Source: Psammoneis japonica (lineage: Eukaryota). Taken from it: DNA of 64,000 nt. The stretch is taken from positions 620,001 through 684,000 of the forward strand of contig QPGO01000027.1 of assembly GCA_008632985.1 (NCBI GenBank), in the 5' to 3' direction. The position numbers and the translations under genes were made by a program. How positions within the stretch are numbered: the first letter of the stretch is position 1; every line of letters starts with the position of its first letter. The notes beneath the pieces are model-generated. The model saw only the letters and a program-made list of their open reading frames with translations, did no database searches and was not told the DNA's origin. Of this stretch, positions 4,058 through 60,028 are shown one piece after another.

Positions 4058-4257
4058 AAGCTACATAAAGATAACATTGAAGTAGACGGTCATTCGATAA
4101 GTAAATTCCCCTTTTAAATAAAGGAGGTTTATAAGCTACATACATCACGCGATGATTCAACAACCTGCTATAATATGTAGATTATAACTTTTATAAGCTA
4201 CATATATAACGGGAGTTTATAAGCTACATAAAGCGATGCATTATACGCTACATAAAG
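4058..4257 (+). repeat. Short dispersed direct repeats TTATAAGCTACATA in AT-rich spacer
   Basis: Copies at 4129, 4191 and 4217, a variant (TTATACGCTACATA) at 4241 and a partial copy at 4058. Confidence 0.8.
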
Positions 4258-14430: not shown

Positions 14431-14621
14431 GACAGGAGGGGGGGATGTTGCTGGAGCATCTGCTGGCAGCTGCCTCTCTCTCTCTCTCTAAAAAAAAGGG
14501 TGAGTCCAAACAAAGAAACCACTGGAGTGCCAGGGGGGGGGCTCTTGTGGCAATGGGCTGTCCAAGATCCTTCCCCAAGAAAGCATTGTTTTTGCTCTGT
14601 GACAACTCAATGGGCCGGGCT

Positions 14622-37269: not shown

Positions 37270-37600
37270 AGAGGGATCTGACACAGCCGACAGGTTGGCC
37301 GTGGCAGTGGCATCAGCTTTGGTGGATGGTTGCCGGCATGTTGAGCAGAAGAGTGTCCCTGATGCACACCCATCTCACCCGTTTCCTTGTTCACACACTT
37401 GTCACACCAGTGCCAGGTGGTGCCTTTGGCATCGGCGATGGTCACACCTTTGTGGATGAAATGCCAGGCAGGCTTGGATGATTTCTTGGAGGGGTCAGGC
37501 ATCTTGACGCTGCCTGCGGTGTCCAAAGGGTCATCCTTCTGTTGGTCCACTTTGCCCTTCCAGTCTTTCCTGTGCTGGTCCTTGCAGGTGGGACACGTGC
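37270..37600 (-). mobile_element. LTR retrotransposon gag C-terminal relic
   Basis: WHWCDKC......G.H....H His/Cys knuckle preceded by a C..C...H remnant, as in diatom copia gag tails. Confidence 0.4.
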
Positions 37601-38337
37601 TCCTCACTGGGCACAGGCGAGAGCACTCAGCTCTGGCGAAGCAAGCAGACCAAGCTGCCAGGATGGCTCAGCTGCCAGCAGAGCCAGTGGGAGTGCAGTG
37701 CAACAACCAATGGAATGATCAACAGGCTTGTGTCACAACTGCACATGTGCAACAAGTGAGCCCATCAGAACCCTCTCACAGCCATCAAAAAGTTCCCTCC
37801 AAGGACACTTCACTGATGACCTCGCACATGACCTCACACTTGACAAGTTGACTGTCACCAGCAGCACACCAAATTGTGCTCAACACTGCGACATTCACTT
37901 GGCACAAGCTCAGTGTTCAATGCCTTCCAACCCCAGTAGAATTCCATGTGGAGCACCAGAATTGGCGTCAATGTAGATGTGCTTGAGCATTGTGTTTGAG
38001 CACGACAACTGCCGATTTTTCGCTCTCGACGACACCACGATGAGATGCTCCGTCGAATGGGTTTGGCCCCAAGGAAGCTTTTCTGCTTAGCATGAGTGGT
38101 GCCACATTGTCGTTTATATGTGTGGATGATGCTGAGTGGGTCGTGCTAAGTACATTTGCCTCCATCACGCACAGACCGAGTTTGCCATTTCACGTTTGTT
38201 TCGTCGTGCTTTGGAGTCAATCGCTGGTTTAGTCGAATTAATCCCCATATTCACGCCACGGCGCGGCGTTCTTCGTTCCGCCCTCGACCCTCGACGAATT
38301 TTCATTGAAGGCGGCGCATACGATTCGATCGAACATT

Positions 38338-40520: not shown

Positions 40521-41045
40521 CATTGTCCCGGGGCAGCCGAAGCTGTCCCTGGAGATGTCCCCGAGGCACGGGGCAACTGTGTTGCCACCACATGTTTTGT
40601 CAATGCAGACCATGCTGGTTGTCATGTGACATGACAATCCCACACTGGGATCATCATCTTTGCACAATGGGCTCCAATCTTGTGGTGCTCTAAACGGCAG
40701 AATGCCGCAGAATCCTCAACTTTTGGGTTGGAATTTGTTGCGATGAAAACTGCGGCAGAACAGATCGAAGCTTTGTGTCACAAGCTCTGAATGCTGGGAA
40801 TCCCAGTCGAGGGACCAACCAATGTTTTCTGTGACAATGAGGCTGTGTTCAAGAACTCCAGGCAGCCGGAGTCAACACTCAAGAAGAAGCACAATGCCAT
40901 TGCCTGCAACCGGATGCGCGAGGTGCAAGCTGCTGGCATTGTGCAGATTGCTTGGGAAGATGGGTGCACAAATCTGGCAGATGTTCCAACTGAGCTCATG
41001 CCTGGACCAAAGCTCTGGGAACTCATTCGTCACATCCCATGGTGA
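40521..41045 (+). mobile_element. Ty1/copia (CoDi-like) RNase H relic
   Basis: FVNADHAG..T*QSHTG..APILWCSKRQN..ESSTFG.EFVA..ALCHKL*MLGIPVEGPTNVFCDN..ESTLKKKHNAIAC..RE..AAG..NLAD. Two in-frame TGA stops. Confidence 0.9.
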
Positions 41046-42666
41046 ATTGGCGAGTCCAAAATGGACAGGCCGGGATTTTCCCCTCCAAAATGGAGGAGGT
41101 TTTGCCCATCCCAAATGAAGTTAAGATTGTGCCTGGAACAGGGTGGCAATGCGAACGGCAGGTCATGTCAAACTGACCTGACTGGGCCAGTGTCAGTCAG
41201 CCAAAGGGGGCTGAGCAATTCCAGCCATGCTGTCGCCAAACAAGCATTGGGGCCATTTGGCAAAGACCGCCACTGTCACTCAAACAGTGGGTGGCACATG
41301 TGGAGCAACCCTCACAATTTCTAGAATCCTGTTGATTGCCGCAACAACACTTTTCCATTAGATCTTGTCCAATTCTTGGCAACTGCGGCATGATTTGCTC
41401 AAAAGCATCTTGAAATCTGGGAGGGAGTCAGACCCGTTGCACTCATGGAACGAGAGTTGAAATTTCAGAAATTCATCTGCAATTCTGCAAGCAATGGCAT
41501 GTTCATTGAACACATGCTCCTGAAAACATTTTGACAACTGAGCAGACACAACTCCACATCTCCAATTTCAATCCAACCACATGAGTGAGATTGAACATTC
41601 TAATGACAGTGTCAAAACACCATGGCATTCGGTGGCTCCACTGCGGCCACACGCATGTCAAATCACTGTTCTGACAAGCACAGTTGATTTGCAACAATGT
41701 GATCAACATCACATGTTGTTGTCATGTCCACAGCTGAGGTTTCAGCAACCACATGACGTGTTTTTCTTCTGAAAACAAGGTGTGAAGTTGCCATCATTTT
41801 GTTGTTGGTTGACTTCAATCACGTTGAATTTTGCTGTTCTTTCTTTCATGAACACATCACAACAGCTCCACAGCAACAATTTTTCACATCTCTTGTTGGC
41901 TTGAGTTTGTTGTTGATTGTTGGTTGTCATTTTTGTTTGACACTCTGATGTTTGTTGCCATCATGGATGATGATCAGTCTGTTTTCTCGCACAAAAAATT
42001 GCAGGCAAAAAATGCATGTCTCTGGCAGCCAATTTGTTGCAACGTGTGTTTTTGCACCCCAAAATTGCACCCTGAATTGCCCCCTTTGCCACGAGTGCAA
42101 CGGGTCTCAGAGGTTGGAGGTTGCGCGAGAAATTGCACAGAAATGTGTCAGGTGCTCATTGCGCAGATTTCTGTGTGATGTGAAACCATCCACATCCATG
42201 CAGACCTCTAATCTCCCAAATGCTGGGGAGTGAGAAAAGCCCCCTGCTCCACTCTGCAGCCATCGGGTCTGTCTGTCCTTCATTTCTTTTTGGGACTCCC
42301 ACACCCTCTGATGGCAAACGCATGATTTTTTTCCCAGACACAAGACCCAGCCACACTGCGCACACTTTCAATGCATGCCGGAGGTGCACATCGTGTGTCG
42401 TGTTGTTGGCACGCGTTGAGGAAAGGTTGTGAGCACATTCCATCTGTTGTGTTTGGGAAAAAAATCGTGCATTTGCCCCACCCCTTCACAAGTGGTCCCG
42501 TGGGATGTGGGTGTGGGTGATGTGTGACAACATCATCACATGCATTGAGCTGGATGTGTTCATGCTCTTGCAAATGTGCACATGTTGTCAAGCAAAAACT
42601 CCCATCCCATGGCACCCCCAAATCTTAAGTCGCCTGGAACCACCCTTCGCAAGTGGAGAACATGGC

Positions 42667-44022
42667 TTTGATGTCATGGTGATGCAATGTTCACGCAATG
42701 AATTTTTTGCATGTTGTCATGTCACTTAATTTTGCATTTGTGCACAAATGCCAACAGCAACAGGAAAAATCCTGAACCATGTTCTCCCCTGAATCTCGAG
42801 TCACCTGGAACCGACTGCAGCTAAAGACACTTTTTGACCTTTCTTGCAACCACGAAAAAAGCATGCACGTCACATCAGATCAACCATGATGATGCCATGC
42901 AACTCTTCCCCAATGCCTTCCCAGGACACCGTTCCTGCTGACACTGTCAACAACAACGCTGACCCAACAGGTGATGTTGTCACTTCTGTTCTGAATGGCC
43001 TGATGCGTGCAAAACAAGATGCCACAAACTGACACTGTCATTTTCATGCTCCGCTGCCTCCCACAGATGCTGTCACAAACACCAATGCCGTTCCTGCATT
43101 TCTTTTGACTGGCATGCCTGATGCTGTTGCTCATGCCCTTGGTGCAACAGGTGCTGTTGATGCTGTCATTGCATTGCACCAATGACATCCACTGTCAATT
43201 GCTGCAAACTGACACTTTTGTTTCCATGCTGCACTGCCTCCACCATCACAATTTTCCAAGATGGCACTGCAATTGTCAAGAACGCTCCAGCGATTCTGCC
43301 ATGTGTCGATTCTTCCGTTAAACTTGTGGGCCGCAAATTGGGCGGGTCACTTTCACACGGGGCTTTGTGTGGTGATGTCTTTCATCATGTCCTGTCCTTT
43401 CCTGATGCCCACAACTTGGCTCACACCTCAGTGCTGCTGCAACCACATCAAGACCTTGCTCATTTTGAAAGCATGCCGGGATTGCAGTTGCTGCATTGTG
43501 TTGAGAACAGCGGGGTCGATGACAGGGAGAGCGTTTTGACAGACGCAATGGCAGCAGCAAATCGTTTCTTCCAAGTCGCCCCACAGTGCTTTGAAATGTT
43601 GATGATGTGTCCTGCAACCTTTGCAAAGACACTTTTTCAGTGATTCTCACACCACCAAAAAAACATCTTATTTTGCATGTGTCAGGCCATTCAGAACAGA
43701 AGCAATGGCGTCACCTGTTGGGTCAGTGTCATCATCGACAGTGTCGGCAGGAATGGTGTCCTGGGAAGGCATTGGGGAAGAGTCGCGTGGCATCATCATG
43801 GTCGATCCGATGTGACGTGTGCTTTTTTCGTGGTTGCCAGAAAGGTCAAAAAGTGTCTTTGGCTGGCCAGAGTCAGCTCCAGGCGACTCGAGATTTGGGG
43901 GAGAATGTGGCTCAGGATTTTTCCTGTTGCTGTTGGCATTTGTGTGCAAATGCAAAATTAAGTGACATGACAACATATAAAAAATACATTACGTGAACAT
44001 TGTGCATCACCATGACATCAAA
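42667..44022. mobile_element. Long-TIR (~355 bp) non-autonomous element carrying a host gene fragment (Pack-MULE/foldback-like)
   Basis: Inverted arms at 42667-43021 and 43664-44022 align by eye over their full length. No TSD resolved. Confidence 0.75.
43260..43630 (+). pseudogene. TauD / gamma-butyrobetaine dioxygenase-family fragment
   Basis: LCGDVFH..DAHNLAHTS..LQPHQDLAHFESMPGLQLLHC..ESVLTDAMAAA. HxD motif present, with conserved Tyr positions replaced by C/H. Confidence 0.8.
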
Positions 44023-44369: not shown

Positions 44370-44482
44370 CCTTAGTAGGGCCCTAGCTACTAGCAGCTCT
44401 GCACTGGTCCCCGGCTGTCGCGCTGTCGCTTTCACACGGCTCAACGGCTCTAAGCTTCCACATCAACGCGAGACAAACCACC

Positions 44483-46765
44483 ATGACCGACGACGAAAGC
44501 GCCATCAATCGTGATCGGTGGCTCGCCCAGATGGAGGAAAGTGTCAAAGGCAGGGTGGGTGATCAATGGAGGAATGGAAGATGGTCGGACTTTATAAAAG
44601 AAGTTGTGTTGTTGCTCCACGAGAAGGAGCGAGATGACGAGGACACGATTGACGCTGCGGTGGGGCTCATCAAGTACGGAATAAAGAAAAAAGAGGATTT
44701 GGTCAGCGTTGCTGGCACTCTGCCTGATGCGGATAGATTCAACAACAGATTGGAGCCTAAGGGCGTTCTCCCCGCCATCTGCGACATTTTGTTCAACAAG
44801 TACGTCCCTGTTGCTCCGGCTGGCTTTACCGTGGAAACGATACCAGAACACTTGGTTCCTATGCAGCAGCAGCAGCAGAAACAGCAGCAGAAACGATCAA
44901 TCTTCTCACATGGATTACCGGAAATGGGACCAATCTTGGAGTCTACTCATTTCACGTCCAACCCGTCCGTGCCATCAGATGGTCAGAATCCGCTCGTCGT
45001 GGTCGCTCCGAAGTATGCAACAAATAAGAAACAACGGGTTACAGCAACCATCATTGAGAGCAAGGAGTTGCTTTCACCTGCGGACGTGGTTCCCCCGAAA
45101 AAGTCTTCTCCCCCCTTTGTTTGCCGACAGTCTTGGCTCAGTGATGTTCAGACCGAGATAATATGGGGGCTTCAGAACTGCGACGATGCAGCTGTCGAGA
45201 TGGACAGGAACGATGAGAATCTGCAGAGGATCCCACCAATGGGTCTCGCAAGATGTTCTCGTGGTGGGAAGACGAGGGCACTCTACGAGATTGCAAATAT
45301 GATGAAAGATTATTCAATTATCAATCTTGATCCTGATCCTGATGATGAGCTTGTGGCTTGCGTCTATGTCTCCTTCAATGATGCCACTAGCATAGAGGGA
45401 TGGGAGCAGGAAGACCCATTGCAAGCTCTTCTTCGCCGGATCGCCTTTGCGGCGCTACCACCTGATCCTACTAAACGAAAGAGTGAGCGCTTTCGTGATT
45501 TTTCAAGAAAGGAACCAGTTTGGGAGGAATCATCCTTCTTAGACTGGATAAAGGATACTCCATGTCTTCTACTCATTGATGAATTGAATAACTTGCACAA
45601 GCTAACGGACACAAATTCAAATGTGGCTGCACACTTTGGCTTGTTCCTCAAGCGAGAATTCATCGGTAAGGAATATCGGTACATGGTGTTCTCTTCTCAT
45701 TTGCTGGGTACCTTCAACTTTCTCAGCGATTACCTCGACAGCAGTGAGGGTAGTTCTCGCACTGTCACTTTGCAAGAACTCCCTATAGTTCCATCTCTTC
45801 GGGAGGCGACAATGCTGAAGCCAGGGCTCAACTCGGTAAGGGAAGCAATGTACTACGGACTGGTCCCAGGGATGATTTACGAATCCAGTGTGAAGGGGAA
45901 AAACATTGATGGGAAGCGCAGCTCTTGGGTACAGAAGGCGATCCAGAATCATTTGGATGGATTGGACGACTGCTTTCATTCCATTCTCAAATCTCTCATT
46001 AATGGCTACATGGACCTTAATTTCCCAGCAGAGCTTGGCACTTTGTTAGACTCTGTTCAACAAGAAGTTGGTGATCCGGATAAAATTCGTTGGGTGCCTT
46101 ACCATTTGCAGTTTGTGTTGCGTGAGTTGAGCGCAAAACGTTTTGCGCATGCAAGACTTGCAGAGCAGTTGTCAGAGTATTGCAATCTTATGAAGGATGC
46201 GAAGGAACTCTCCGGAGAAGGTTGGGAAGGTCTCTTTGTTCTTTTTCTTGTGGCTCGTTGTCTCATTCGTAAAAGTGACACGACAATTGTTCCGGATTAT
46301 TGGTTCGAAACTGGCGGAGAGGAGGTTGCAGTTGTTCTGAATCGCTACGACGCATCCATGAACGAAAACCGACCATTGTCAGTTTGCAAAACATGGGACG
46401 AAATGAAGGCTGGAGTGATTCCTGGGAACGAAAGTTATTGCTTGAACATTCTCTATCCATCCCACAACAACTTTGAAGTTTACGATGTTATCGTTGTATT
46501 CTTTGTTGGTAGAAAGAAAAACCATGTATGTGGATATCAACTTAAGGAGGGAAAGGCCCCAAGAAAGCGCAAGGCGCACCCAGATATGGACAGTAGTCTG
46601 TTTGTACAAGGAAGTCCTCCAGCAGGAACTATAAAGGATGATGGAAAAGGCTGGACAATTCCGGGCAAGGAAGCGATCGACGCCTTTTTTGGTGAATCGG
46701 GCAAGTACTGGACACCGGAAAGCTGGAGGAAATTTAGGAATAGCGCCATCATCCCTGGGGCCTGA
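44483..46765 (+). CDS. Crinkler-like protein B: alternative alpha-helical header + poly-Q + same NTPase/REase body
   Basis: Nearly identical to protein A from PLVVVAP onward, with an unrelated ~170-aa N-terminus. Intact ORF. Confidence 0.75.
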   Translation: MTDDESAINRDRWLAQMEESVKGRVGDQWRNGRWSDFIKEVVLLLHEKERDDEDTIDAAVGLIKYGIKKKEDLVSVAGTLPDADRFNNRLEPKGVLPAICDILFNKYVPVAPAGFTVETIPEHLVPMQQQQQKQQQKRSIFSHGLPEMGPILESTHFTSNPSVPSDGQNPLVVVAPKYATNKKQRVTATIIESKELLSPADVVPPKKSSPPFVCRQSWLSDVQTEIIWGLQNCDDAAVEMDRNDENLQRIPPMGLARCSRGGKTRALYEIANMMKDYSIINLDPDPDDELVACVYVSFNDATSIEGWEQEDPLQALLRRIAFAALPPDPTKRKSERFRDFSRKEPVWEESSFLDWIKDTPCLLLIDELNNLHKLTDTNSNVAAHFGLFLKREFIGKEYRYMVFSSHLLGTFNFLSDYLDSSEGSSRTVTLQELPIVPSLREATMLKPGLNSVREAMYYGLVPGMIYESSVKGKNIDGKRSSWVQKAIQNHLDGLDDCFHSILKSLINGYMDLNFPAELGTLLDSVQQEVGDPDKIRWVPYHLQFVLRELSAKRFAHARLAEQLSEYCNLMKDAKELSGEGWEGLFVLFLVARCLIRKSDTTIVPDYWFETGGEEVAVVLNRYDASMNENRPLSVCKTWDEMKAGVIPGNESYCLNILYPSHNNFEVYDVIVVFFVGRKKNHVCGYQLKEGKAPRKRKAHPDMDSSLFVQGSPPAGTIKDDGKGWTIPGKEAIDAFFGESGKYWTPESWRKFRNSAIIPGA

Positions 46766-46953: not shown

Positions 46954-47684
46954 GTGCTATTATTTGCCATGCGAGTACGTCTAGTCTTAGTCCATACTTG
47001 CGTGAGCGCAAAGGAAGGAACGACGAAGAAGTTCAAAATGGACACTAACAATCAACGACAAACGACACGAACCGTAGCGTCTCTTTGTGTTTTTGGCAAC
47101 ACTGCGGGATGTGCTGGTAGTCCATCCTTCACGACATGATCACAAAATCACAACACAATGCACAACAAGCAAGAAAGCTCAAATGCCCACACAACTTGAA
47201 CTGCAACTGCAAAACGACATGTCATCTCGAAAGTCAAATCCAGTTGCCATCCACGCTGCTAACTACAATCCACCAGAAAGTACGAGTGCTAATGCAAGCC
47301 ATTCATTGATTGTTTCTTGTGGCAGCAGGTCGGGAGTCACAAAAACTGTGCATGAAGTTCCAGAACCCTCCACACTCGTGGCACCATTGGGTGCCACACA
47401 GACTGGTCATGTGGAGACAACCTAAAATGCGGGTCATGTGCGTGCCACAACCGGGACAAGGGAGTCCATCAAATTCGATGTTGTTGACAGCATGGCATTG
47501 ACTTTGGTGTGCTCGATGCAGGAAATGTTACAATGGGAACGAGGATCACACTCCCATGCAAAGTGACACTTGTTTTGAAAGTGTTGCTGTTGGCACTGCT
47601 TCTTCCTTCATGTCAACTTGCTTTGCATGTGCAATCCAACACACTTTGTCTTCAGCGGGGACTGAATCTCTGGATGGAATGTCC

Positions 47685-47935
47685 CCAAATGAGCTTGACT
47701 CACATGCAGATGCTTGTGTTGCTGGGTCAGCTCATTCATCATTCTCTGCTCCTGACGTGCCATGTCCGTGCGACCACATTCCGACGAGTGCGAACAACTT
47801 CACAAAGTCCCAATGCAGTCAGTTGCCACTGCCTGGATGGATCCTTTGACGGGCCAACCACACTTGCTGATGATGCATGAGGCCATGTGTTTTGGGGACT
47901 GAGTGAAGAACTCACCAATGTGTCTTAATCAACAA
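47685..47935 (+). mobile_element. Ty1/copia (CoDi-like) aspartic protease relic
   Basis: ELDSHADACVAG (family pattern ELDSHADTC..G), then VATAWMDP.TG..HLL..HEAMCFGD in another frame. Confidence 0.7.
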
Positions 47936-49711
47936 AGGAGCGAGCTCAATGCCGGCACTTGAAAAACATCATTCTTCATGCATCGATGTCTCACTTTTGT
48001 CGAAATTGTAAAAAGTGAAGGACCAGTTCAAGGGAGATGCAACCTTGCCAAATGTCCCAAATTGCATGAGTGCATTCCACCTGGGGCTGGAGCAGGCCAC
48101 GCAGATTGACACCGGGGTGTGACCCCTCCTTGGGCATCAACCAAGATGCTCCAAGCAAATTGCCCCCTGCACTCTCATGATGCAGGTTTGTTGGCAATGC
48201 GCAAAAAGAGCTCAGAGTGGACTCAATTGGAAGACCTCAAATGATGCCTGTTCCTGTGCAATGCCATTGTGGGTGCATTTCTTGTGCTTTCGCTTGTGCT
48301 TTCACTTGTGCTTCATGGATGCTCCTTTGCAGGTTTTCTGAAGAGAAATGGAGCTCATCTTCTCCAGAGCAGCACAGGCTGTCTCAGGTGTTCTGCTCAC
48401 AGCACCTGGCTGTGATGGTCGTCAGGCAAAGACTGAAGATGTTGCCTTGGTGGGAGGGCAGGACCCAAATCACCAAGTCATTGTGAAGGGCACAGAGTGG
48501 TCCAGCATGCTGGAAACTCTGGCTAAATCCAACACAGCTTTTTGTTGTCATCTTTGCTTGAAGTTGCCCATGCACCACATGGTGATTCCTGCTGGATCTT
48601 TGCTGGTCAGATCATTGAGATTGGGTGGAAATTGAACATTGCCAGAAATTGGTTGGCAGGCAGCATTTTGAGATGAGCACAAGAGAAAGTTTTGAACACC
48701 AGTGTTTGACAAGCTGAAAGAAAGTGAGGCCTGCTCACATTGGAGGGTGGGCAGATTTTCTGTCCACCCACAAGATGAAGTGCAAGGCAATGGCTGCAAC
48801 TCTTTCTGGACAGCAAGGCTGCATCATTGAGGCACAGAACTTGAAGAGGAGTAGTTGTCGTCAATGTTGCCATTCGCCGTTGCCTTGGTCTTGGCATCAG
48901 CCTGGTTCTCTTCTGTTTCTTTTTCATTTGTCACCGCAGCTTCACCGTTCTCCTCCAGTTCCTTGTTCTCCTCTTTGGTGGAAGATTTTTCTTGGTCTTT
49001 GTCATCATCAAATGCAACTGCACTCATTGCATTGTCAATGTCATCATCACTGTCATTTGCGGCCTGTTCCTCTGCATCTTCAAATTTGGCTAAATCCAGC
49101 CTGACTGCCTTCACAGCGTTCTTCTTGTCTTTGTCCAGGGCACGTTCAAAAGTCTCTTCTTTTGACCCAGACCCAGCCTCAGGATTGATTTGAGCAGAAG
49201 AATCTGTGGCCTTGCTCTCATCATTGGAGACATTCATGCTGGGGCAACACAAGTTGACAACATGATGTAGCCTGGCTTTGACAAAAGAGGGTTGTCAGGT
49301 GTCTCAAGCAAAACTCCTTTCCAACCATGGATGAAAAGGCCACAAAGAACAAAGCAAAGGTGGAAACTTCAGCTGACAGTGGCATGTCCTGTGATTGCCA
49401 ACATGACAAGCAATCAACACCACAGAGAAGACGTTGCAGGTCCATGGAACCAAATTTTGTGAAAGCACAGACACTCACCTGGTCAATGGTCTTGACATGA
49501 TGAAGCTGTGGTTTCTTTTCTTGCTTGCTCTGATGGGATTTCTTGCAATGGAACTGTGCCGCATCCTGACATTGATGGTTGAATTCCACAATCACAGCCA
49601 AAGGCACAGGACAAGGTGCTCCAAAGAGGTCAGAATTGAACTCTGACAGAAACGTGGGGCATGCACAATGGCAACCACAGCACTTCTCCAAAATTTCCTC
49701 GGGGCCTTGTC

Positions 49712-50600
49712 TGACCTCTTTGAGGAAAAGCATTCCTTGGTCAGCCACCTCAAAGTGCCCCGTCTTGTGTCTCTCCGCACCAGCAAAGGCCCCTTTCTCA
49801 TGGCCAAAAAGCTTGCTTTCAAGCAATGACTCAGGCAGTGCCAAGCAGTTGAGCTGGACCAGGGGAAAATCCACCCTTCCCAACTGATGATGGATGATCT
49901 TGGCCAGGACCTCCTTTCCCATGTCTGTTTCACTGAGAAGAAAGATCAAGATCAATGATTGTGCAATGCAGGGGATTTTGGAGAGGATTTTGTTCATCGG
50001 CAGTGAAGCAAAGGCACAGCCAAAGGCATTGACCAGCTGGGCATCAGCCATCAGATCGGTCACGAGCGGCACCTCGCCCTGACTGCAGATCCTCTTGTTC
50101 TCCTCCAGCAAGCATGCAACCTGGGCAAAGAGGAACTCGGTGCTTGATGCATCATCCAGGCAGAATGCCAGACCAAAAGCACATGGAGTGGTGCATTGTT
50201 GCCCCCCGCGTCCAGATCTGATGCAAGCTCCTTGAGGCCCGACCGCACCAGAGCGCCAGATGGACATGGCGGTTTGTGTCGGAGAGCAGGATGTCGAACT
50301 CCCTGGGGGCATTGCACCTGATGATGTGCATGTCGTGGTGCACTTTTTGGATCACAGTGGAGATGCAGTTGAGAGCCACATCAGCCTTGTGGTGGCTGTC
50401 TGCCCTGATCCTCTCCAGATTGTCCAGGCTGATCCGGAGGAGGGCAAGCTTTCTGCTGGTGCAAACGGTCCAGTCCAGTTCTTCAGCAAGGCAGTGATGG
50501 AAGAACGCTCAGAAACAGAGCCCCATTTCTGGGTCCTGGATCACCATGAGGCAGAGTTGGGCATTCTCAAAAGAGATGGTGATCTGCTGGGCCATGCTGG
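49712..50600 (-). pseudogene. Bacterial-type GAF-tail / GGDEF-like / sigma-54 activator AAA+ gene fragment
   Basis: AQQITISFENAQLCLMVIQDPEMGLCF*..LAEELD..LALLRISLDNL..EFDILL, then SETDMGKEVLAKIIH..LNCLALPESLLESKLFGHEKGAFAGA..GHFEVADQGMLFL (degenerate GAFTGA). Contains a stop and a frameshift. Confidence 0.85.
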
Positions 50601-50615
50601 TTGGGTGGTCCCTGT

Positions 50616-51657
50616 TCACCAGGCAAACTCACCGAGCCCCACGCTTTCAACCCGATGTTTGAGATGCACATTGGAGCCATTCACAATGATGATTCCAAGG
50701 CCTGTCTCCACCCCAAAACCATGCAGGGCATCTTCCTCAATTGCAAAAACATGCTCAATGTGATGCATGTGAAGGTTCCTTTTGGCATCGCCCAGGTTGG
50801 CAAAGCTTTCCTTGACAAAGTGACACCTCACAATTGTGTTTTTTGCTCACGCGAGTTCAAACAGATGGAAATGGAATGGTTCTGCCATCCCGATGACTCC
50901 CAGGCATGGTTCCGGTTCTGGAAAGAAGAGCACATGAAGTGGTGGAAAGGTCTTGGTGTCCGGGAAGATCTGCTGATCTTCCATGACCATGCTGAAGATG
51001 AACTTGCCCACTGCTCAAACGCCTGCATTGATGTTGAGTGCATGCACCCCTTCACTGATCCAAATTGTGATGAGATTAAGAGCATTGCCCACTGCAGATG
51101 TTTTGACCTGACTCAGCACCAGGAACACTCCAGTCAGAAGATGGAACATCTCAACCAGGAAACCAAGGAACACTTCATCCCCAACATCATCAAAGCTGCA
51201 TTGGGCCTGACTCGTGCTGCACTCGTGGTGCTTTGTGAAGCCCATCATGAAGAGTGGGTTCCCAAGGCCAAGGACGGAACCAAAGGCGGCATCATTGAAG
51301 CTGAACCTGGAGGAAAAGCTCCCGAGGGATGCAAGAGCAGGGTTGTCATGAATTTCCTGCTGTCGCTGGCCCCTGTCAAGGTTGCATTTTTCCTGCTGCT
51401 TAAGAACAAGCCCAAGCTGGTTGCCAAGACCCAGGATCTGTTCATGGCACATCGTGGCAAGTGTGTGTTCTTCTGCAACCAGGTTGGAGCCATTGGATGC
51501 CACTGCTGCCAACAGGATGAAATTGGCACACCGTTCTGTGTGACCGTAGACTTCAACATGCTGGAAGACAACACCGTCACCATTTGCTGGCACAACTTGA
51601 TGAAGCAGGAGCACATCAAGATCAACAAACTTGATGTGTTCTTCAACAAGCGGCTGA
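50616..51657 (+). pseudogene. glyQS: Bacterial-type alpha2 glycine--tRNA ligase fragment (N-terminus missing)
   Basis: TEP.AFN.MF, CLHPKTMQGIF (YLRPETAQGIF), PFGIAQVGKAF, REFKQMEMEWF, ELAHCS (ELAHYS), IGCHCCQQDEIGTPFCVTVDF (IGRRYRRQDEIGTPFC). Catalytic Arg residues lost and no Tyr in the ORF. Confidence 0.92.
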
Positions 51658-52899
51658 AACTTCATTCTTTAACAGGATTTACAGGGTCAAGCAACAGGGT
51701 TGTTTGATTGTGTTCATCCTGCAAATCCTGTCCAAAATGGCCTTCCAAGGCTGGTCATGCTTTTGCATGGTTCACTCACTGTGAATGATGAGAAATCCCC
51801 TCTTAAAGTCTGCCAGGAAATTGGTGCCCAGGGTGTGGCATGGCACTGCCCCAAATGTGGTGATGACATCAGTGTTGAAACCAGCTTCTGTGCCAGCTGT
51901 GTGCATGATGAGAAGACGGGAAAACTGCCATGGAAAAAGCAGCTGCCAAGAAATGTGCCCTCATGGCCTTCTTCATGCTGATCATCCTTGGTGCTCTTGT
52001 GGGAGTTGGCTGCTTCACAGTGGAGCGCATGCCCTTGTTCAAGGAACAACAGGCCACAAGCCATGTGCAGGGGTTGTGATTTCCGAAAAACAGGGTTTGG
52101 GCTGATTTCTGGTGCAAAACTCACGTAGAAAATTCGTGTGGAATGTCTTGTTCATTGTGCTTTTCCCGTGCTTTGCAAAAAACAGGCCACAACCTCAAGG
52201 AATCGATTGCAGTCATAATTGTTGACACTTTGCGCACTCACTTTTTGATGACAAACACGACGATGTCCACCGTTTGGCAAAATTCCATCATTGGAAAATG
52301 TTTGCCGTGGTGGGACCGTGTTGAAGTGTTGATCGAATTTCTGAAAATGGAGTTTTGAAGTGTTCATGCACAGAATCATGCCACTTGTGTAAAAGTCATC
52401 ATGCAAAGTGTCAATGGTTTCAGGGGAAAACGATTCCTTGAGGTGTCGGTGGAGCAGAGAAGCACGGCAGAAGCACGAGAAAAAAATCGGCCCAAACCCC
52501 AATTTTTGTAACTTTTTCTACGTAGAATTTCTGCGTGATTTTTGTGCCAGTGCACATGGCTTGTTCACTTGGAGGTCATCACCAAGAAGGCAGAGGCCCT
52601 CAAGGTCAAGCTGGACAAGAAGGCTCCCATGGCCCAGGTTGGCAAGATGATTGAGCTCAAGGATCTGAAAGGTCACTACCTGCACAGCAAAATCCTGGAA
52701 CTTGACAACAGCCAGGTTCTGTTGGACATGGGCAACCAGGGCCACAAGACCATTGCCTGTGCCTTGCTGGCAACAAATGTCAGGGTCAGGGCAGATGGTG
52801 CATTTCATGAAAATTTCTGAAGAATTCGGTGGCAAACAGATCCCCTGACCATGATTGCCAGTCATGTTGACACGTCCCTGCCCTTTTCATGTGCTTGCC

Positions 52900-53900
52900 G
52901 GATCAGGGATTTCAGCCCCACAGCCATGAGGAGAACTTGGTGAAGTGCATTTGGTGTGCCCAACCTTGCCACAGCCACAGCAATGTTTGTTGGTGTTGCC
53001 AGCAGTCAGGTTGGACTCTGGGAGTTTGCTGGCTGGGGCAGGCCAATCTTCATCACTGACAAGCTCACCATGGGTCTTGGTGATCCATCCAATGAGACCA
53101 ACAGGTCCAAGTTCCACACAGTCAGTGTCCTTGGGGACCTCCGCGGGGACATGCAAACAACACTTGTGGCATTCCAACCTCTTGACAGAGCCAAGCTTGT
53201 CAAAGACTTGGCAGTTGAAAAACTCAGAGGATGTCTTGGATGCCCCAGTTAAAACAGCAGATCAAGCATCAACCAGCACAGTGCTTGGTCCGTCTGCATG
53301 ATTTTGAGCAGGCGCAGGGCCTCGGTCACAAGCTCGGTGCAATCCTCACCAAGGCATTGATCAAGAGTGAGCTCCTTCAACTTGTTCTTGGCAGCCTCAA
53401 CGTCAATGAGAGCACTGGCGTTGCAGGCATCGAGAGCCATCGCAAGCAGGACAGACCCTGGGAGATCCTTGCAGTTCTTCGTGTGATTGAACTTGGCCTC
53501 AATCTTTTCACAGAAGGTGTCAGTGATGCAGGACTTGATGATGAGTTGCAAAAGCCAATGTCTTCAATCTCACATTGGGTCTCAAGGTCTTCAACAGTGA
53601 AGGTGTGAAGATGATCAAAAAGGTGCATGACCTTGCCATTGACGTTCTTGAGATGGCAGAAGGTTTCTTGTCCATGTGACTCAATTAAGTCCTGGACAGT
53701 CTTGACAGAGTGGTCTTTGTCCAGTTCTGCACTGGAGCCATTGGATGACTCAATCTGACCATTGAACTTGGAGGCAGCAGATGAGGGAAGTTGATCACAA
53801 AGGGATTGCTTGATGGGATCAACAGCTTTCAGATGGTGATGCTGCAAGGCAAAATGGCAGGTGCACTTGTCTTTCTGGCCATGCTTGTCATTCAAAGCAG
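52900..53900 (-). mobile_element. LTR retrotransposon gag relic (copia-like)
   Basis: LPGSVLLAMALDACNAS..D...A...L..L.L..CLGED and a terminal CCGCGKVGH knuckle remnant. Frameshifted. Confidence 0.45.
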
Positions 53901-54519
53901 AACCACCCAGACAGACACTGTGAGAGTGGTGGGTGCCACTGTGAGTTGGCACTGGGATCAAAGGAGTGGGGTTTGTTGAGGCTTGCATGGCAGCAAAGGC
54001 TTCAGCAAACCTCTTGAAGGCATCAGGATCCATGGAAGTGATGGTCACACATGAGGATCATTCGACACAGAAGATCAATCAGTCAAGGAGCTGGGCAGGG
54101 TTGCAACACAGATGATCACCATTGGATTGTGATGCAGAAGATTGCTGTTGGATTGTGACATAGAAGATCGCCATTGGAAGGGATGTTGTCTGTTACAAGA
54201 TGAACAAGTGGCAGCAACTCCATCATGAGTTGACACCGGTGTGTGAATTGGGGTCGCAACCACTTGGGATGCAACAATGCACTGCATGGGATGGAGAGTT
54301 CAGGGCTCTCTTGAGGTTGTAAAACACAGTGCAGAGGATGACAGGATGTGGTTTGGGGCAACAAGATGCACCAAAGATGCGAATTGTGAGAAGATCTCAT
54401 GATGAATTGGAAATGACATCATGACCTGACGGTTGTGTGTGTCACTCTGATTGCTGTTGCCAGTGGCTGCAGTGTGACCGGGGGCATCATCCGTGAATCA
54501 GACTTGACGTTGGTCCTGG

Positions 54520-55170
54520 TCACCTTTGGCAGACTTGACCTGCTCAATCCGCTTGCAGAATTGCACGAACTCAGACACAGTGTGAGCCAACGGGTCAAAA
54601 TTCTGCAGAGTCATGATCTTCTGCCACGCGTTTGGCACTCCGCACTCAAACAAGTCACAGAGTTCATCATTGGGCAATGACTCCGGTGTTTCTCCTCCTT
54701 GTGTCACAGGCAGAAACTGAGAGACACAGCCATTGCTTTCAACAGCTCTCGTGACATGGTCACAAGTGGAAACCTCAGCGGGCTTGCGCGCGAAGCGTTG
54801 CAGATGACGTTTCTGCAGCAGTGCCGCCCTGTGTGGGAATGCACTTTCCTTTGGCTTTGCTGTGCATGCAGCATGCTCAGCGTTGGTTTGAGAAGCCTGC
54901 TCTTCAGCAGCATTGTCAAAGGTTGTCAGGGCATCACCCTCGAGAAGCCTGTGCACAAGTGCATGCTTCGCCGGCCCCACAGAGTGATGGTGTTGCAGAG
55001 AAAAATCAGAAGTTCCTCGCATGTTCCCACAGAAAAGTGTGGCAGACCCATCTTGTGCATTGGACTGTCAGCATCAGCAGGGTCGTTACGCAGCTTGAAT
55101 GTCTGGCACTCACCCTGCTGCATTTCCTTCTTCTCCAGCCACACAAACAGAATCGGCGGCTTGAGATGCT
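54520..55170 (-). mobile_element. LTR retrotransposon gag relic (Ty3/gypsy-like)
   Basis: FKLRNDPADADSP..F..GT.EELL, GPAKHALVHRLLEGDAL, FP.RA..LQKRHLQR..RKP, GVPNAWQ..M..QNFDP..FVQFCKRIE. Confidence 0.55.
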
Positions 55171-55919
55171 TCTTCATGGTGGTTTTTGAGTTTGTCGGTC
55201 CTGCCAGCATGTCTCAGCATTCGTTTTCGTAGATTTTGTAACCTCACACACTGTGCGGGAGCAACATTGCTGTGCCCCATGTGTGCAATGGGCAACAAAA
55301 ATGCAGATGTGTTGCAACTGCATCGATGTGAAAATTGTGAGCTGGTTTGTGTGCAGAGAAATGGAATCGTGCGAATGGGGAATCTTGCCCAATTTGTCAC
55401 ACCAATTGATCGTGCATTCGCATTGTGGATCGTGCAAATCATGCCATCATGCACCATGCATGAGTGATGTCATCATGTGGAATCACGCCACTGTTGTGGG
55501 CCAGACAACAGGTTAGAGTGCTCCACACGGGTGCTCTCTTGGCATCCTTCTAGATTGCCTGAGACATGGAGCCATGCCCTCCTGTGGTGTGCTTCCCAGG
55601 TGCGTGTTGGCAATGCTGTGCTGCCATGCACAAGAGGCTGTGCATGGTTTTGCTGTGTTGTCCAGCACTGAGGCACGCTGCAGATTGATGATCATGCACA
55701 GTCTGTGCAGCTCATGTCCCTCAAAACTCTCTGATCAAGTCTCCATGACTGGCCTCAATTTTTGCACCACACTCTCTTCTTGTTCTGAGTGGGGCCAAGA
55801 AGGAAGCAACAAAAAACACGACCTGCCATTGGCAGAAGTGCTGTGGGAAAAGATCTGATCTTGCATCTCTTGAGCTGTGGCACATGACGCAGATGATCCC
55901 GGTGTCGCTCTCCTGGAGA

Positions 55920-55965
55920 TTCATCGTGGGACCCCACAAATGCGGAGGGACACACAACCCGGAAA
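55920..55965 (+). repeat. Degenerate solo end of the 44118-44369 MITE family
   Basis: TTCATCGTGGGACCCCACAAATGCGGAGGGAC versus the intact TTCATCGTGGGACCCCACAAATACGGAGGGAC. Confidence 0.85.
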
Positions 55966-56461
55966 CAGAGCAATTTTGATTTTTTGCTCATGACGCATGA
56001 GACAACAAAATGAACAAAGATGCCGTTGCGTTTGACACTCTCATTCTAGCTGCTGAAACACTCCTTCAGCAGCATGTTGTGGCACCGATGTCTCTCAAGT
56101 GCATTGTGAACAGTCAAAAGGCAGAGGCTCCAAAACAATGCTGTTCTGCTTCCAACAAGTCTGCTGACAGTTTGCATGCCAATGCTGTTGCTCAGGCAGG
56201 CATGCGACTTGGGAAGGAGCTTGCTGACACCAACCAGGTGGAAACCATGGTTCAACTGAGATGCAGCAGCCATGCGCGAAGAATGACTGATGCTGGGGCT
56301 CAATGCCAAACAGCAAACAGGCAGAGATGGGAGCAGAATCAACAAACGCATGATGAGGAGAATGTGACCGCTGAACAACCCCCCCCCCCCGCGAGTTGGA
56401 AGAAGAAGGGGCAGTTGAGCCTCCACCCACAGCGGAAGGAGAGACAGACCATGAAGTGGAG

Positions 56462-56634
56462 GTGGAAGAGGAAGAAGGTGCTCCTCCAGCTGAGGAGGAA
56501 GAAGCAACTTCACCAGCAGCATCTGCGGAAGAGGAAGGAAAGGAAGAAGAAGAAGGTGCTCCTCCAGCTGAGGAGGAAGAAGCAATGTCAGCAGCAGCTT
56601 CTGTGGAAGAGGAAGGAAAGGAAGAAGAAGGTGC
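56462..56634 (+). repeat. 81-bp tandem repeat encoding a Glu/Ala-rich peptide
   Basis: GAAGAAGGTGCTCCTCCAGCTGAGGAGGAAGAAGCAA occurs twice, with flanking partial units. Confidence 0.7.
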
Positions 56635-59600
56635 CACAACACGCAATCCCTTTGAGCATCCCAAAGACTGTGCACCTAGAAATGAATCAAACATTGGTCA
56701 GCATGATGCGCAGGATCTCAAAAGGAAGAAGAAAGGCACGAACAACATGACTGGAGCCAAGAAAAGATGAAACCTGACGGATCTTCCACAAAGTGCACGA
56801 GCTTCCTTCAACCACAACATGAGAACAAAATTTGGCTGCATGACAAAGAATGCATGCGGTGCACTTGAGCACTGTGCACTCGATCCTGAAAGTGAATCAT
56901 TCACCAAAATCAGCCCAAAAGTCAGGGTGACTCTTGCGATCGAGACTGATGTGAAGCATTTCAAATCAAACAAAGAAGCAGAAAGTGGTTGTCTCACAGA
57001 ATGAGAAAAAGTGGACAAACTCAAAAGGGAGAGGCCGTCACTGATTCTCGCATCCAACAGCAGGGAGGATGCAAGGAGCACCTTCACTGCAGTTGAGTCA
57101 TGCCTGAATGAAGCCAAGCAGTTGTGCAAGGAAAAGGAAGAGGCCGGTGGGACAGCTGGTTTTCTGAGTTGCAGACTGAAGAAGTGCATGAGCTGCATGG
57201 TGTGGGCAATGAAGATGAGGCAGAGGAATTCATGAAAATGGCAGTGGATCCGGGGAAGGAGGGCAAATGGACTGAATCCAACACTGGTCCTCATCAAGCA
57301 CGTGAAAAGCTGATGAGGCGATGGCAATCAAACCCAGTGTGGTGTTGCAACAATGCATGAGTCGCAACAATGTGTGACACAAATGCACCTCTCTGGTTGT
57401 TCTAGTCTGAGACAGTCACATGGATCGCTTCTTTCTTCATGGGCTGGAGAGGCTGACAATGGAAGAATCAATGCTGCCCAGCGTTGAGGCTGACACTTGA
57501 CTGAGCACTTGGTCCTGCGACTGAGACAAGTTCTCATGCTGTGAGGTGGCAAAGTTACGGGAATGATCCACAGCACACTGTTGTTGGCCTCCAGACCTTG
57601 ACTCTGTTGTCCCATGATGGAACGGCATCCTTGTCTGCTTTTTCAGTTGAGCCACATCAATCCCGTCCAATGCATGTTCCTTGTCAAACAATTCTTCCTT
57701 TCTCTTTTTTCTGGCATCGTAAAAACCAGGAACCTTGTTGAGATGCTCTCGAGCCTTTGTCACCATGGTGAGATGCCAGTCTCGAGCAGCAGCACTTTCC
57801 ATGCCCTCAGTGGCCATGTCTGTGGGGAAGGCCCATTCAAATTTCTGCTTCTGTGCCATCCAGGATTCATTTGTTTTGTCTTGTCTCTCAACACCTTGCA
57901 TTCCGCCAAGAGAAATTTTTCAGTGTGCGCACCTTTTATTTTCTTCATCTCTTTCTTGCTGTCAGACATCATCTTCAAGCTCTTCAAGGGTTGCTTGAGG
58001 TGGCTTTGGCAGTGCCTTTTGATTGACAGGGTTGGGGTTGCTCTTGTTGAAGGGATTGGCTTTGTGACAATCAAGGGCAGCCTTTTCTCCCGGTTCTGCA
58101 AGGAAGCAGTTCATGGGATCGACTTGGCACTTCCCTTTTGGTGACCGCAGGTTCCTCCTTTCCAAGAGTTTCCGGTGGACTGTCATGGTGCACTCCCATG
58201 TGGCTCACATCCCACAACTGACAGACCATGGCGCAAAACGTGCAACCAAGATTTAGAGGCCTGTCACTCTTTGAAATGGAATTCAACAAGTGTCGCTTCA
58301 AGAGACGCCCTGGCTCTTCCTTCAGATTCGTGTTGCAGTTCACATTTCTTGCGGCAATGATTTTTTTCACACTCATCTGCATTCTGATGACAGAAAGTGA
58401 CTTCTCAAAGTTGGGTGTGCATTGCAGTGGCATGGTGCATCAACTTTGTTGACACACCTGTCAATGCATTCCTCTTTCAGTTTCAAGCTTCCCAAGTCTT
58501 GCGTGCCGCATCCAATTGAGGTGTCCTTCTGTTGGAATTCTTGGTGTCGATCGGTGCACACAATGGCTCCTTGTTCCGTCTTCTTGAACACCACAAACTT
58601 CTTGAACATGGCTTGATCTTTTTCAGACATGGTGCATTCTCGCTTTGCATCTTCCTCAGCAATCCTCTTGCATCCAGCGGCATTTGCAATCGAAAAGATG
58701 AGCTGATGGAGGATGTTTGCGGCAACAAACATGTCTCCATCTCCATCGCCATGAGACAGTCCAGCTGCAGGCTCCTTTGCTTCTTCCTCCTTGTTCACTG
58801 TCATTTGTGGGGTTGTGAAATGGCATGTGGGAGTGCACCTGTCTGCAACAAGCCTTTTGTCAAGATTGTCCAAACTGATCCCCAGCTGATCACCTTTCTG
58901 AACATCGAGTTGGCGCATGAATTCACTGCCTCGGCAATGTCCTTGTGTCAAACGGAACTTTTTGAGAGGGAGAGACCCCAATTGTGGAAGTGTGAACTCT
59001 TGGCACTTGACGATGACTTGGAAAGGACCTCTGCTGAAGTCCTTTGGAAAGGTGTTGGCTCATTGCTCACAACATTTCTGATGAGCTCTGCACAGACGAA
59101 CGCCTTGTTGCAAATTCTCTTTGTCACGTCTGTCACTTTTCCGTTGTCTTGCTCTCTTGAGCCTGTCATTGGGTGCTCCACAAAAAGACTCAAGAGGCTC
59201 TTGTCATTGTTGGCAAACCCTTGCAGCCAGTCTGTGGAGCCGTTCCAATGGAGAGCCGGATCTCGGCGCGCTTCAGGCTGAACCAAGAAAGCATGAAGTG
59301 CCAAAGCAAGTGAACAAAAATTGGTCCTCACATCTGCAGAGAAACATCCCAACTCAGCTGCCCGCAAATTTACAGAAAACGACCATCCGCGCGCACCAGT
59401 GGCAACTCCTTCCCCCCTGTCGCAACTGCAAAAACCACTCCGCTCTTTTGTTCACGCGAAGGAAGACACAAGAAATCATCAAGAGCTTCAAAGCCGCCAA
59501 TGTCAAAATGTGAGCATGATGACTCTTGCTGTGTGACTCCAGTGCAGGAGCATTTTCTCGAGCTGGCGTGTCTCGGCAAGTGGCGCACTTGTGGCAGTCA

Positions 59601-60028
59601 GCACGGCCATCGCAGCTGGGACAAATGGGCCCTTCACAAAGTCACTGTGCGCGCATTTCTCCAAAGCAGTGCAGGCACAAATGGCGCCCACACGGACGCA
59701 TGGTGAAGTGTGTCTTGCTCTTCAGTGCGCTTCTTGACACGCCACATTTCCACAGCTTTCCTCTGGGGAGGCGGCCTTCCTTTTTGATGACATGATGACC
59801 TTCCACAGTGCCAAACGGTCTTCTCATAGAGTGTGACAAGTGAGTGGAGTAGAGGATTGAACTGCACAACAACTGTGTGCTCTCCATCGGACGCAACAGC
59901 GTTTGTGGTCATGCATCTTTCATCGAGAAAAAATCAAAAAATCAAAATTGCTGCATTTCCGGGTTACGTGTCCCTTCCTCTTGTGCGCTTGTCCGCATTT
60001 GGCTCGCTCACGCACATCCGCGTGTCAC

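Follow-up and report, generated by a model that had tools for sequence, protein, structure and literature searches.

A 64,000-nt stretch of the diatom Psammoneis japonica (GenBank assembly GCA_008632985.1, contig QPGO01000027.1, positions 620,001 to 684,000), here called the window and numbered from its first base, carries two truncated bacterial gene pieces lying back to back. Our data show an internal piece of a giant sigma-54-type regulator gene on the minus strand and, five bases away on the plus strand, a glycyl-tRNA synthetase (GlyRS) gene without its 5' end; both are present in a single copy, inside a diatom block depleted of TpA and CpG dinucleotides. The pair is very probably a non-functional mosaic relic of bacterial DNA in a nuclear chromosome of the diatom, broken by truncation and then hypermutated. 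A first-pass annotation, made from the letters of the sequence, had placed two bacterial gene fragments back to back at 49712..51657, and alignment to homologues confirms this to within a few bases (the homology ends at 49713). Coordinates of the features are collected in Table 1.

The regulator piece clearly belongs, to judge from its sequence, to a line of descent from the sigma-54 enhancer-binding (AAA+ activator) family. The Pfam profile PF00158 (Sigma54_activat) matches the minus-strand open reading frame (ORF) with an E-value of 2.3e-28, over profile positions 7-108 of 168 only. The closest family consists of bacterial giants of 1875-1893 aa (P0121-P0124), which combine HAMP, GAF_2, GGDEF, a CBM9-like domain and sigma-54 AAA+ and are 61-69% identical to the window. 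In tblastn, residues 1343-1466 of the best homologue, P0121 (1875 aa), align to window 50622-50251 (63.7% identity over 124 aa) and residues 1489-1644 to 50180-49713 (68.6% over 156 aa); since these two segments lie in different frames, one frameshift separates the parts of the regulator. An in-frame TGA at 50511-50509 stands where 4/4 homologues have arginine (alignment with P0121-P0124). Homology begins exactly at LVNR (...tld/LVNR in the boundary check) and ends abruptly at 49713, so that residues 1-1342 and 1645-1875 are missing and the gene is truncated at both its 5' and its 3' side. The annotation had seen the 5' loss, which is real for both genes, and had missed the loss of the 3' part of the regulator. 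As homology stops at residue 1644 of 1875, with an unrelated translation downstream, a complete AAA+ domain and the C-terminal DNA-binding region are absent. The remaining motifs are degraded: Walker A reads SETDMGK instead of GETGVGK, the GAFTGA loop reads GAFAGA and Walker B reads LFLKEV instead of LFLDEV, the original form of each being present in 4/4 homologues. With such motifs the function of a sigma-54 activator is evidently lost.

The region upstream of the AAA+ part is GGDEF-like, with a weak Pfam GGDEF match (E 0.014) in the window and PF00990 in the best homologues. The first reading of the gene as a GAF/GGDEF-like/sigma-54 activator thus holds for its last two elements; for GAF, no match was seen in the window's regulator piece. 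We also considered the ATG at 50598 as the start of the regulator, with the part upstream of it as a GAF domain, and rejected it: this methionine is internal, within SMAQQ in 4/4 homologues.

The second piece matches the bacterial short form of the dimeric (alpha2) class II GlyRS family across the catalytic core and the anticodon-binding domain. A phmmer search against PDB aligns it to residues 148-477 of 479 of the bacterial GlyRS chain 8u2q (E 6.5e-70), and the NCBIfam profile NF003211 (glycine--tRNA ligase) covers it from profile position 138 to 451 of 454 (E 1.3e-90), its 304.4 bits being slightly below the cut-off of 312. Pfam HGTP_anticodon scores 25.6 bits, above its cut-off of 21, and tRNA-synt_2b 22.9 bits, below its cut-off of 29.3. 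By tblastn, residues 136-468 of P0004 (478 aa) align to window 50628-51632 and residues 192-532 of P0001 (533 aa) to 50628-51656; N-terminal residues 1-135 are absent from the window. Homology begins sharply, at the amino-acid level, at LTEPR, and the frame stays open, without a frameshift, over 1,032 nt. The conserved motif GRRYRRQDE reads GCHCCQQDE, and the piece, as its sequence indicates, is a pseudogene fragment of the family and no working enzyme. An inverted repeat follows directly after GlyRS (~51672-51731); considered as a possible remnant of a terminator, it has no T-run behind it. Neither of the two pieces was ever able to make a working protein.

Table 1. Bacterial fragments, their junction and the surrounding block (window coordinates)
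Feature	Position	Strand	Description
Regulator fragment, whole	49713-50622	minus	internal piece, residues 1343-1644 of ~1875, of a bacterial HAMP/GGDEF/sigma-54 AAA+ regulator
Regulator part 1	50251..50622	minus	GGDEF-like region, P0121 residues 1343-1466
Frameshift zone	50181..50250	minus	70 nt in place of homologue residues 1467-1488 (22 aa); shift from frame -2 to frame -3
Regulator part 2	49713..50180	minus	linker and first ~60% of sigma-54 AAA+, P0121 residues 1489-1644
Junction	50623..50627		five bases assignable to neither fragment
GlyRS fragment without 5' end	50628..51659	plus	C-terminal 70% of dimeric bacterial GlyRS, residues 136-~470 of 478
Single-copy tail of unknown origin	51660..52055		between the GlyRS end and a high-copy foldback element; depth 61.6
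TpA/CpG-depleted host block	47001..60000		49 TA and 290 CG in 13,000 nt; TpA/ApT 0.066; (CpA+TpG)/(ApC+GpT) 1.91

At the join, regulator homology stops at 50622 and GlyRS homology starts at 50628, both as defined at the amino-acid level; the junction had been expected at about 50600-50616, within about 10 nt of its actual place. The missing parts of both genes were not found elsewhere in the window by tblastn with five regulator homologues and three full-length GlyRS proteins (E <= 1e-3).

Both pieces are of bacterial origin, as had been proposed: their best matches are not diatom nuclear genes but proteins from bacterial metagenome-assembled genomes (MAGs). For GlyRS these are labelled Verrucomicrobia or Kiritimatiellia and are 57-60% identical. 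A FastTree phylogeny was made from 114 sequences, namely the window fragment and those hits among P0001-P0120 and P0244 that reach at least 400 aa, shorter ones being left out. It places the fragment in a 6-member clade (Shimodaira-Hasegawa-like support 99) nested in a 25-member clade (support 99), whose only named members are three Kiritimatiellia and one Verrucomicrobia. The branch of the window sequence is long (0.77) and its composition skewed, as expected after hypermutation, so the placement with Kiritimatiellia/Verrucomicrobiota enzymes is a good indication and not a proof. The clade's insertion EWVPK...PEGYE is also present in the window sequence. A PFTDP stretch, earlier read as an insertion recalling enzymes of the Planctomycetes-Verrucomicrobia-Chlamydiae (PVC) group, turned out to be a conserved motif of the clade (consensus YPFTAP) and not an insertion; the PVC affinity itself agrees with the tree. 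Among 401 sampled Verrucomicrobiota genomes the best GlyRS matches are 55-59% identical, and a profile search of the genome contigs with the GlyRS alignment gave distant relatives, at most 46% identical among the matches listed.

It is more difficult to place the regulator. Its more distant relatives, 38-39% identical, are labelled Planctomycetes, and a protein atlas returned only generic GAF/GGDEF clusters for the piece (score 0.88). With P0121 as the query, 400 of the 401 Verrucomicrobiota genomes gave a match, two candidates being scored per genome; those listed cover only the AAA+ end (residues ~1450-1870), at 41-53% identity. The GGDEF-like piece had no match in 5 + 301 Planctomycetota genomes, a blank that is uninformative without a positive control. 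The PNPase encoded beside the regulator gene in the metagenomic locus L099 is 49-53% identical to its counterparts in five Planctomycetota genomes versus 44-46% in the five genomes with the best GlyRS matches, and these identities give a weak hint that two donor organisms may have been involved.

It appears that the two genes were not natural neighbours, in agreement with the first-pass annotation. The giant regulator gene was located in two metagenomic loci (L099 and L100, 79% and 55% identical to P0121), and GlyRS is absent from the 8-10 kb upstream of it in both. These loci (L099, 843-14047; L100, 2343-15589; contig GC 60-62%) share a conserved order upstream of the ~1880-aa regulator gene: an ORF of ~1020-1050 aa, a queC-like gene, a small ORF and pnp. 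In the five genomes with the closest GlyRS, sigma-54 matches cover the generic AAA+ part only and are 35-49% identical. They do not adjoin glyS, the nearest being 14 kb off and 35% identical. Two truncated gene pieces thus stand 5 nt apart in the diatom and are non-adjacent in all of these loci and genomes. Since no adjacency is seen in relatives and the regulator is cut at its 3' side as well, the comparison makes it more likely that unrelated fragments were joined than that a single insertion suffered a single deletion.

The composition of the window alternates sharply. Normal, gene-bearing blocks have observed/expected ratios of ~0.9 for CG and ~0.5 for TA; depleted blocks (1-2000, 5001-21000, 34001-38000, 41001-44000 and 47001-60000) have 0.02-0.09 for TA, 0.1-0.5 for CG and 1.5-2.0 for TG/CA. 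By the thresholds of a preprint on the chlorarachniophyte Bigelowiella natans (bioRxiv 10.64898/2026.01.13.699255), 38 of the 64 1-kb segments (59% of 64 kb) show TpA depletion together with CpA+TpG enrichment. Their mean Rho is 0.06 for TpA and 0.29 for CpG, and TpA correlates with CpA+TpG at -0.91. Across the depleted blocks TA loss is uniform and CG loss variable (Rho 0.02-0.67), which suggests two separate processes.

The bacterial fragments bear the same marks as the 13 kb around them, with observed/expected values of 0-0.05 for TA and 0.30-0.33 for CG, against 0.17-0.61 and 1.02-1.30 in bacterial homologues. Per ~1 kb, nine homologous bacterial stretches contain 48-129 CG and 5-46 TA and the fragments 20-21 CG and 0-3 TA; there is not a single TA in 49601-51000. 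Because the bacterial homologues have normal TA and CG, the depletion arose after the transfer and its direction is known. The details are best seen in GlyRS, where 251 columns are conserved in at least 70% of 20 homologues. The window is identical in 178 of them and different in 73, and 53 of these differences are explained if TG or CA in the window was once CG or TA; control dinucleotide models explain 4, 7 and 16. After in-silico correction of TA and CG decay, 231/251 columns match the bacterial consensus and at most 20 stay unexplained. Every conserved tyrosine is now cysteine or histidine (11/11 in GlyRS and 5/5 in the regulator; TAY became TGY in ten cases and CAY in six), and CG>TG/CA changes hit 32 of the 44 conserved arginines (17/22 in GlyRS, 15/22 in the regulator), leaving His, Cys, Gln, Trp or, in one case, TGA. 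As TA loss is complete, other substitutions are few and GlyRS has no frameshift, the pattern argues for processes much faster than background mutation. A shared mutational process in both fragments, claimed by the first-pass annotation, is therefore well founded (TA ~0-0.05, CG ~0.3 in each); the inactivation that it ascribed to this process had already come with truncation. The stop codons of the 13-kb block follow the same rule, with 690 TGA, 37 TAA and 30 TAG on both strands, and with TAA and TAG so scarce, frames stay open over long distances, which gives the dead fragments the look of genes.

That the insert resides in a diatom, as first supposed, is supported by its neighbours. The parts of the window with normal composition encode a DBP10 helicase, a chromo-JmjC protein, ribosomal protein S15/S19, a nine-HA-domain protein and a DUF6824 protein. 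For the DBP10 ORF (23507-26203) all named matches in the top 120 are diatoms, at 55-62% identity (Bacillariaceae, Cylindrotheca, Nitzschia, Pseudo-nitzschia, Fistulifera, Seminavis, Cyclotella, Thalassiosira); the best matches overall reach 67-68%. The continuity of the insert is supported by a 5,195-nt Logan contig from the sole public run with the sequence (X1), which spans 47500-52115 and bridges 49713, 50625 and 51660, with 9 substitutions and 3 indels relative to the window. Its depth of 61.6 equals that of the unique contig at 52861-53500 and indicates a single copy. The listing for the sequence contained no RNA run. Between X1 and the window, four of eight substitution differences (47500-52115) fall at CG/TG/CA sites; this fits ongoing CpG decay, and one could also speculate about a methylation-related difference in base calling between technologies. 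A search of Joint Genome Institute (JGI) metagenome contigs for the same pseudogene in other diatoms, with peptide patterns from the mutated GlyRS, gave 11 pattern matches and no relatives.

To compare this relic with known systems, it should be noted that bacterial DNA in a diatom nucleus has a recent precedent. In Epithemia clementina, insertions of diazoplast DNA in the nucleus (NUDTs) consist of 8-42 pieces each from distant endosymbiont loci, and 121/124 of their genes are truncated by more than 30%; the inserts are decaying and silent, and they are young, with 98.4% identity to the source and a donor-like low GC (PNAS 2025, PMC12377750). Like them, the Psammoneis insert is a mosaic of truncated, decaying bacterial pieces. 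It differs in its source, the donor of NUDTs being a resident cyanobacterial endosymbiont and the donors here PVC-type bacteria without known residence in the cell, and in its state, with two recognisable fragments only, both heavily rewritten at TA and CG (PMC12377750).

The closest parallel for the rewriting comes from B. natans, where two integrated regions of viral origin yielded 231 de novo mutations, 230 being A>G or T>C; all lay at TpA (giving TpG/CpA) and arose at ~1000x background, in bursts and in some lines only; TpA-poor clusters in that genome are enriched in foreign, including bacterial, genes, and an ADAT2-like adenine deaminase was proposed (bioRxiv 10.64898/2026.01.13.699255). 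The available text of the same preprint contains no mention of diatoms or of CpG loss. Both systems share TpA>TpG/CpA on both strands, clustered TpA depletion with CpA+TpG enrichment, and a target that is single-copy DNA of non-host origin (here bacterial, at depth 61.6). In B. natans mutations were seen arising in mutation-accumulation lines, and the viral region is mildly depleted, with a Rho TpA of 0.45 (bioRxiv 10.64898/2026.01.13.699255), whereas here only the end state is seen and the mean Rho is 0.06. Further differences are the additional loss of CpG here (mean Rho 0.29), the stramenopile host and the bacterial nature of the DNA used for calibration.

The signature also resembles fungal repeat-induced point mutation (RIP), likewise a hypermutation by transitions in a specific sequence context, which leaves selfish or non-host DNA full of changes and unable to code. 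RIP changes C to T mainly at CpA and so raises TpA, with usual thresholds of TpA/ApT >0.89 and (CpA+TpG)/(ApC+GpT) <1.03. The fragments show the reverse, 0.026 and 2.15 respectively, and because the target is single copy, recognition of repeats as in RIP is not required. Mitochondrial and plastid DNA inserted in the nucleus (NUMTs and NUPTs) and Wolbachia-type insertions are likewise non-functional foreign fragments, often concatenated from non-adjacent pieces, that became fixed in a nuclear chromosome. Unlike the near-total TpA removal seen here, those inserts come from intracellular donors and show ordinary mutation or CpG-methylation decay. Failed horizontal transfer and mosaic insertion are known kinds of event. 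The value of the relic lies in the near-complete TpA-directed hypermutation, together with CpG decay, that it demonstrates in a diatom; our literature searches found no report of such a TA/CG signature in diatoms.

We can explain the relic by the following course of events. DNA of one or two PVC-type bacteria would have entered the diatom nucleus as fragments, among them 910 bp from the middle of a ~5.6-kb regulator gene and, from a Kiritimatiellia-like glyS, at least 1,032 bp of the 3' part. These pieces would have been linked in head-to-head orientation and taken up where a chromosome had broken, most likely by end-joining, a course also proposed for NUMTs, NUPTs and the Epithemia NUDTs, or rearranged soon after insertion; of these two orders we infer, with the first-pass annotation, ligation before insertion rather than rearrangement afterwards. 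The insert and its 13-kb gene-poor surroundings, whose end state is seen directly, would then have undergone TpA>TpG/CpA and CpG>TpG/CpA changes on both strands. For the essentially complete loss of TpA, the best explanation would be an enzyme that deaminates adenine on either strand, like the one proposed for B. natans, and the CpG to TpG/CpA conversion, ~75-85% complete, carries the signature of methylated-cytosine deamination. Such a course would leave a dead fragment pair with degraded motifs, as in Walker A, GAFTGA and Walker B of the regulator and in the Arg/Tyr-rich motifs of GlyRS.

Other origins of the pair have to be weighed against this mosaic insertion. The regulator and glyS might have been divergent neighbours in one contiguous bacterial stretch that lost the 5' parts of both genes in a later internal deletion, at least 4.4 kb long. 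A single deletion of this kind leaves a head-to-head orientation, and both sets of best matches come from PVC-type or marine/environmental MAGs; yet the queC-x-pnp order without GlyRS in 2/2 regulator loci, the lack of a close regulator orthologue in the five closest-GlyRS genomes, the PNPase identities (nearer Planctomycetota, at 49-53%, than the best-GlyRS genomes, at 44-46%), which hint at a different lineage, and the 3' cut of the regulator, which needs at least one further break, make this origin improbable. The Epithemia study leaves undecided whether mosaics form before or after insertion (PMC12377750), which gives this alternative some room. Instead, a transposon able to capture genes (Pack-MULE, Helitron or CACTA/KDZ type) could have taken pieces of earlier bacterial-derived, perhaps once intact, diatom genes and left them at this site. 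The fragments are not bordered by terminal inverted repeats or target-site duplications, Pfam scans of ORFs found no transposase or helicase in the 13-kb block, and the region is single copy (depth 61.6) and unrepeated in the window; moreover, agreement of 231/251 corrected GlyRS columns with the bacterial consensus makes it hard to fit in an extended previous existence as a gene of the diatom. We consider such a capture very improbable, even if capturing transposons do yield chimeras of internal gene fragments in mixed orientation, Plavaka/KDZ remnants occur in other depleted blocks and a high-copy foldback element (52056-52564) abuts the region. MAG-like bacterial genes in eukaryotic assemblies are a common artefact, and the sequence is present in one public sample only, so that bacterial contamination or an assembly chimera had to be considered. 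This explanation is effectively refuted and has next to no chance of being right: the fragments share the TA and CG values of the flanking 13 kb, unlike 9/9 homologous bacterial stretches, all conserved Tyr codons are mutated, GlyRS is so changed that no living bacterium could use it, and all junctions are spanned by an independently assembled contig whose depth equals that of the unique flanks.

A different question is whether an enzyme is needed at all. The insert could be real and its TA and CG loss a slow neutral decay, from an unusual spontaneous bias in unexpressed methylated heterochromatin, with no enzyme and no defence. CpG decay through spontaneous deamination of 5-methylcytosine is universal, the four of eight differences between X1 and the window at CG/TG/CA sites look like ordinary CpG decay, and the block, at 13 kb, is mostly unrelated to the insert. 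We know of no spontaneous chemistry specific to A or T in TpA, and TA loss is complete (none left in 49601-51000, 16/16 Tyr codons changed) next to at most 20/251 other substitutions and no frameshift in GlyRS, which implies, by a rough estimate, a TpA rate tens of times background. Together with the occurrence of the same change in B. natans in bursts, in some lines, at ~1000x background (bioRxiv 10.64898/2026.01.13.699255), this makes neutral decay unlikely.

Several points weigh against parts of our explanation by mosaic insertion and hypermutation. The neighbourhood of the two genes was examined in few genomes, and the true donor is not among them. A close regulator orthologue was not found in the 401 Verrucomicrobiota and 301 + 5 Planctomycetota genomes, so that there may have been one donor or two. 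The Logan contig ends in repeats on both sides (~46924 and 52115), so linkage to diatom genes rests on the window's own assembly and on the shared signature, and run X1 may be of the same sample as that assembly. A dedicated enzyme is deduced from the final state of the sequence and from a comparison of rates (at most 20/251 unexplained columns versus 100% loss of TA in Tyr codons). CpG loss lies outside the B. natans signature, and the two processes may be unrelated. Finally, the depleted block extends far past the insert, and bacterial DNA may be a bystander in targeted heterochromatin and not the trigger.

The surroundings of the insert deserve a separate description. Between GlyRS and the foldback element, the tail at 51660..52055 has no tblastx match in the flanks of 12 Kiritimatiellia-like bacterial glyS loci; in this comparison the wider region 47000-53000 gave nothing significant outside glyS. 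Pfam DZR matches the tail weakly (8.7e-5, under the cut-off), and weak zinc-ribbon/IBR matches occur in depleted DNA at 47306-47527 (minus) and 51673-51978 (plus); they are probably artefacts of the cysteine enrichment brought by Tyr>Cys and Arg>Cys changes. Pfam searches for further bacterial pieces in 59 ORFs of at least 110 aa (from 35176 to the window end) and 93 block ORFs of 55-109 aa returned, in the block, only such weak sub-cut-off matches. The two fragments are thus the only bacterial pieces identified in the 13-kb block, and the label of a graveyard of transferred genes, given by the first-pass annotation, was correct as to dead bacterial pieces and generous as to their number.

The foldback, MITE-like (miniature inverted-repeat transposable element) sequence at 52056-52564 forms the right edge of the single-copy stretch with the bacterial fragments. 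It consists of nested inverted repeats (arms 52081-52108/52484-52511, 52192-52208/52428-52444 and 52056-52069/52551-52564) and has a read depth of 1800-5000, compared with 61.6 in the flanks; the Logan contig runs into it from ~52056. Its part 52061-52165 has an inverted 111-nt match, 82% identical, at 1929-2038; both copies lie at edges of depleted blocks and may be ends of one repeat family. Further right in the same block, a 226-aa ORF at 53380-54057 (minus) has 101 homologues in a library of 1.84 billion proteins (best E 2.3e-17, 35-37% identity) and matches the N-terminus of proteins of 76-5061 aa, with no Pfam domain in the 12/12 homologues scanned; it belongs to an uncharacterised protein family, possibly of mobile-element type. 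A tandem pair of an 89-nt unit (78-nt offset, 93% identical) lies at 56464-56630.

On the left, the Logan contig ends near 46.9 kb in a gene end with a 95%-identical paralogue. Intact ORFs of 703 aa (38242-40350, plus) and 792 aa (44387-46762, plus) have normal composition and form islands among the depleted blocks; at the 3' end they share 454 nt with 95% identity, the N-terminus of one weakly matches Crinkler (1.6e-5), and they may be a young, still unmutated repeated gene family. Other depleted blocks hold weak remnants of Plavaka (KDZ-type) transposases under the Pfam cut-off (6626-7246, minus, E 1.7e-4; 15849-16349, plus, 5.2e-5), so that relics of transposons bear the signature as well. 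At 43161-43640 (plus), again inside depleted DNA, there is a piece of a TauD-family dioxygenase (gamma-butyrobetaine/trimethyllysine type), which may be a host pseudogene or foreign; Pfam TauD matches it at 1.4e-6, and NCBIfam profiles at 2.8e-13 to 1.2e-9, far under the cut-offs.

Dead inserts like this one are the raw input of gene transfer from bacteria to diatoms, which mostly fails, and published surveys count mainly the surviving genes. The bacterial ancestry of the fragments also serves as an internal calibrator, giving direct evidence that the host block lost nearly all TA and most CG by transitions after integration. For annotation the result is a warning, as TA-free blocks without TAA and TAG yield long false ORFs and cysteine-rich false 'zinc-finger' matches. 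Until now, hypermutation directed at TpA in integrated foreign DNA is on record from one chlorarachniophyte preprint only. It is possible, and we put it forward tentatively, that diatoms possess a DNA-editing defence, probably TpA adenine deamination acting beside CpG methylation, which marks integrated or selfish DNA regardless of copy number and leaves it TA-free, and that this is the same system as in B. natans, widespread or ancestral in SAR (stramenopiles, alveolates and Rhizaria). If this is true, relics of this kind might allow the process to be mapped and dated across the genome. That its end state occurs in a diatom in so extreme a form, combined with CpG decay and over 59% of the window, suggests that genome defence by such a mechanism could be common among major marine algae, an idea that is testable in a transformable group.

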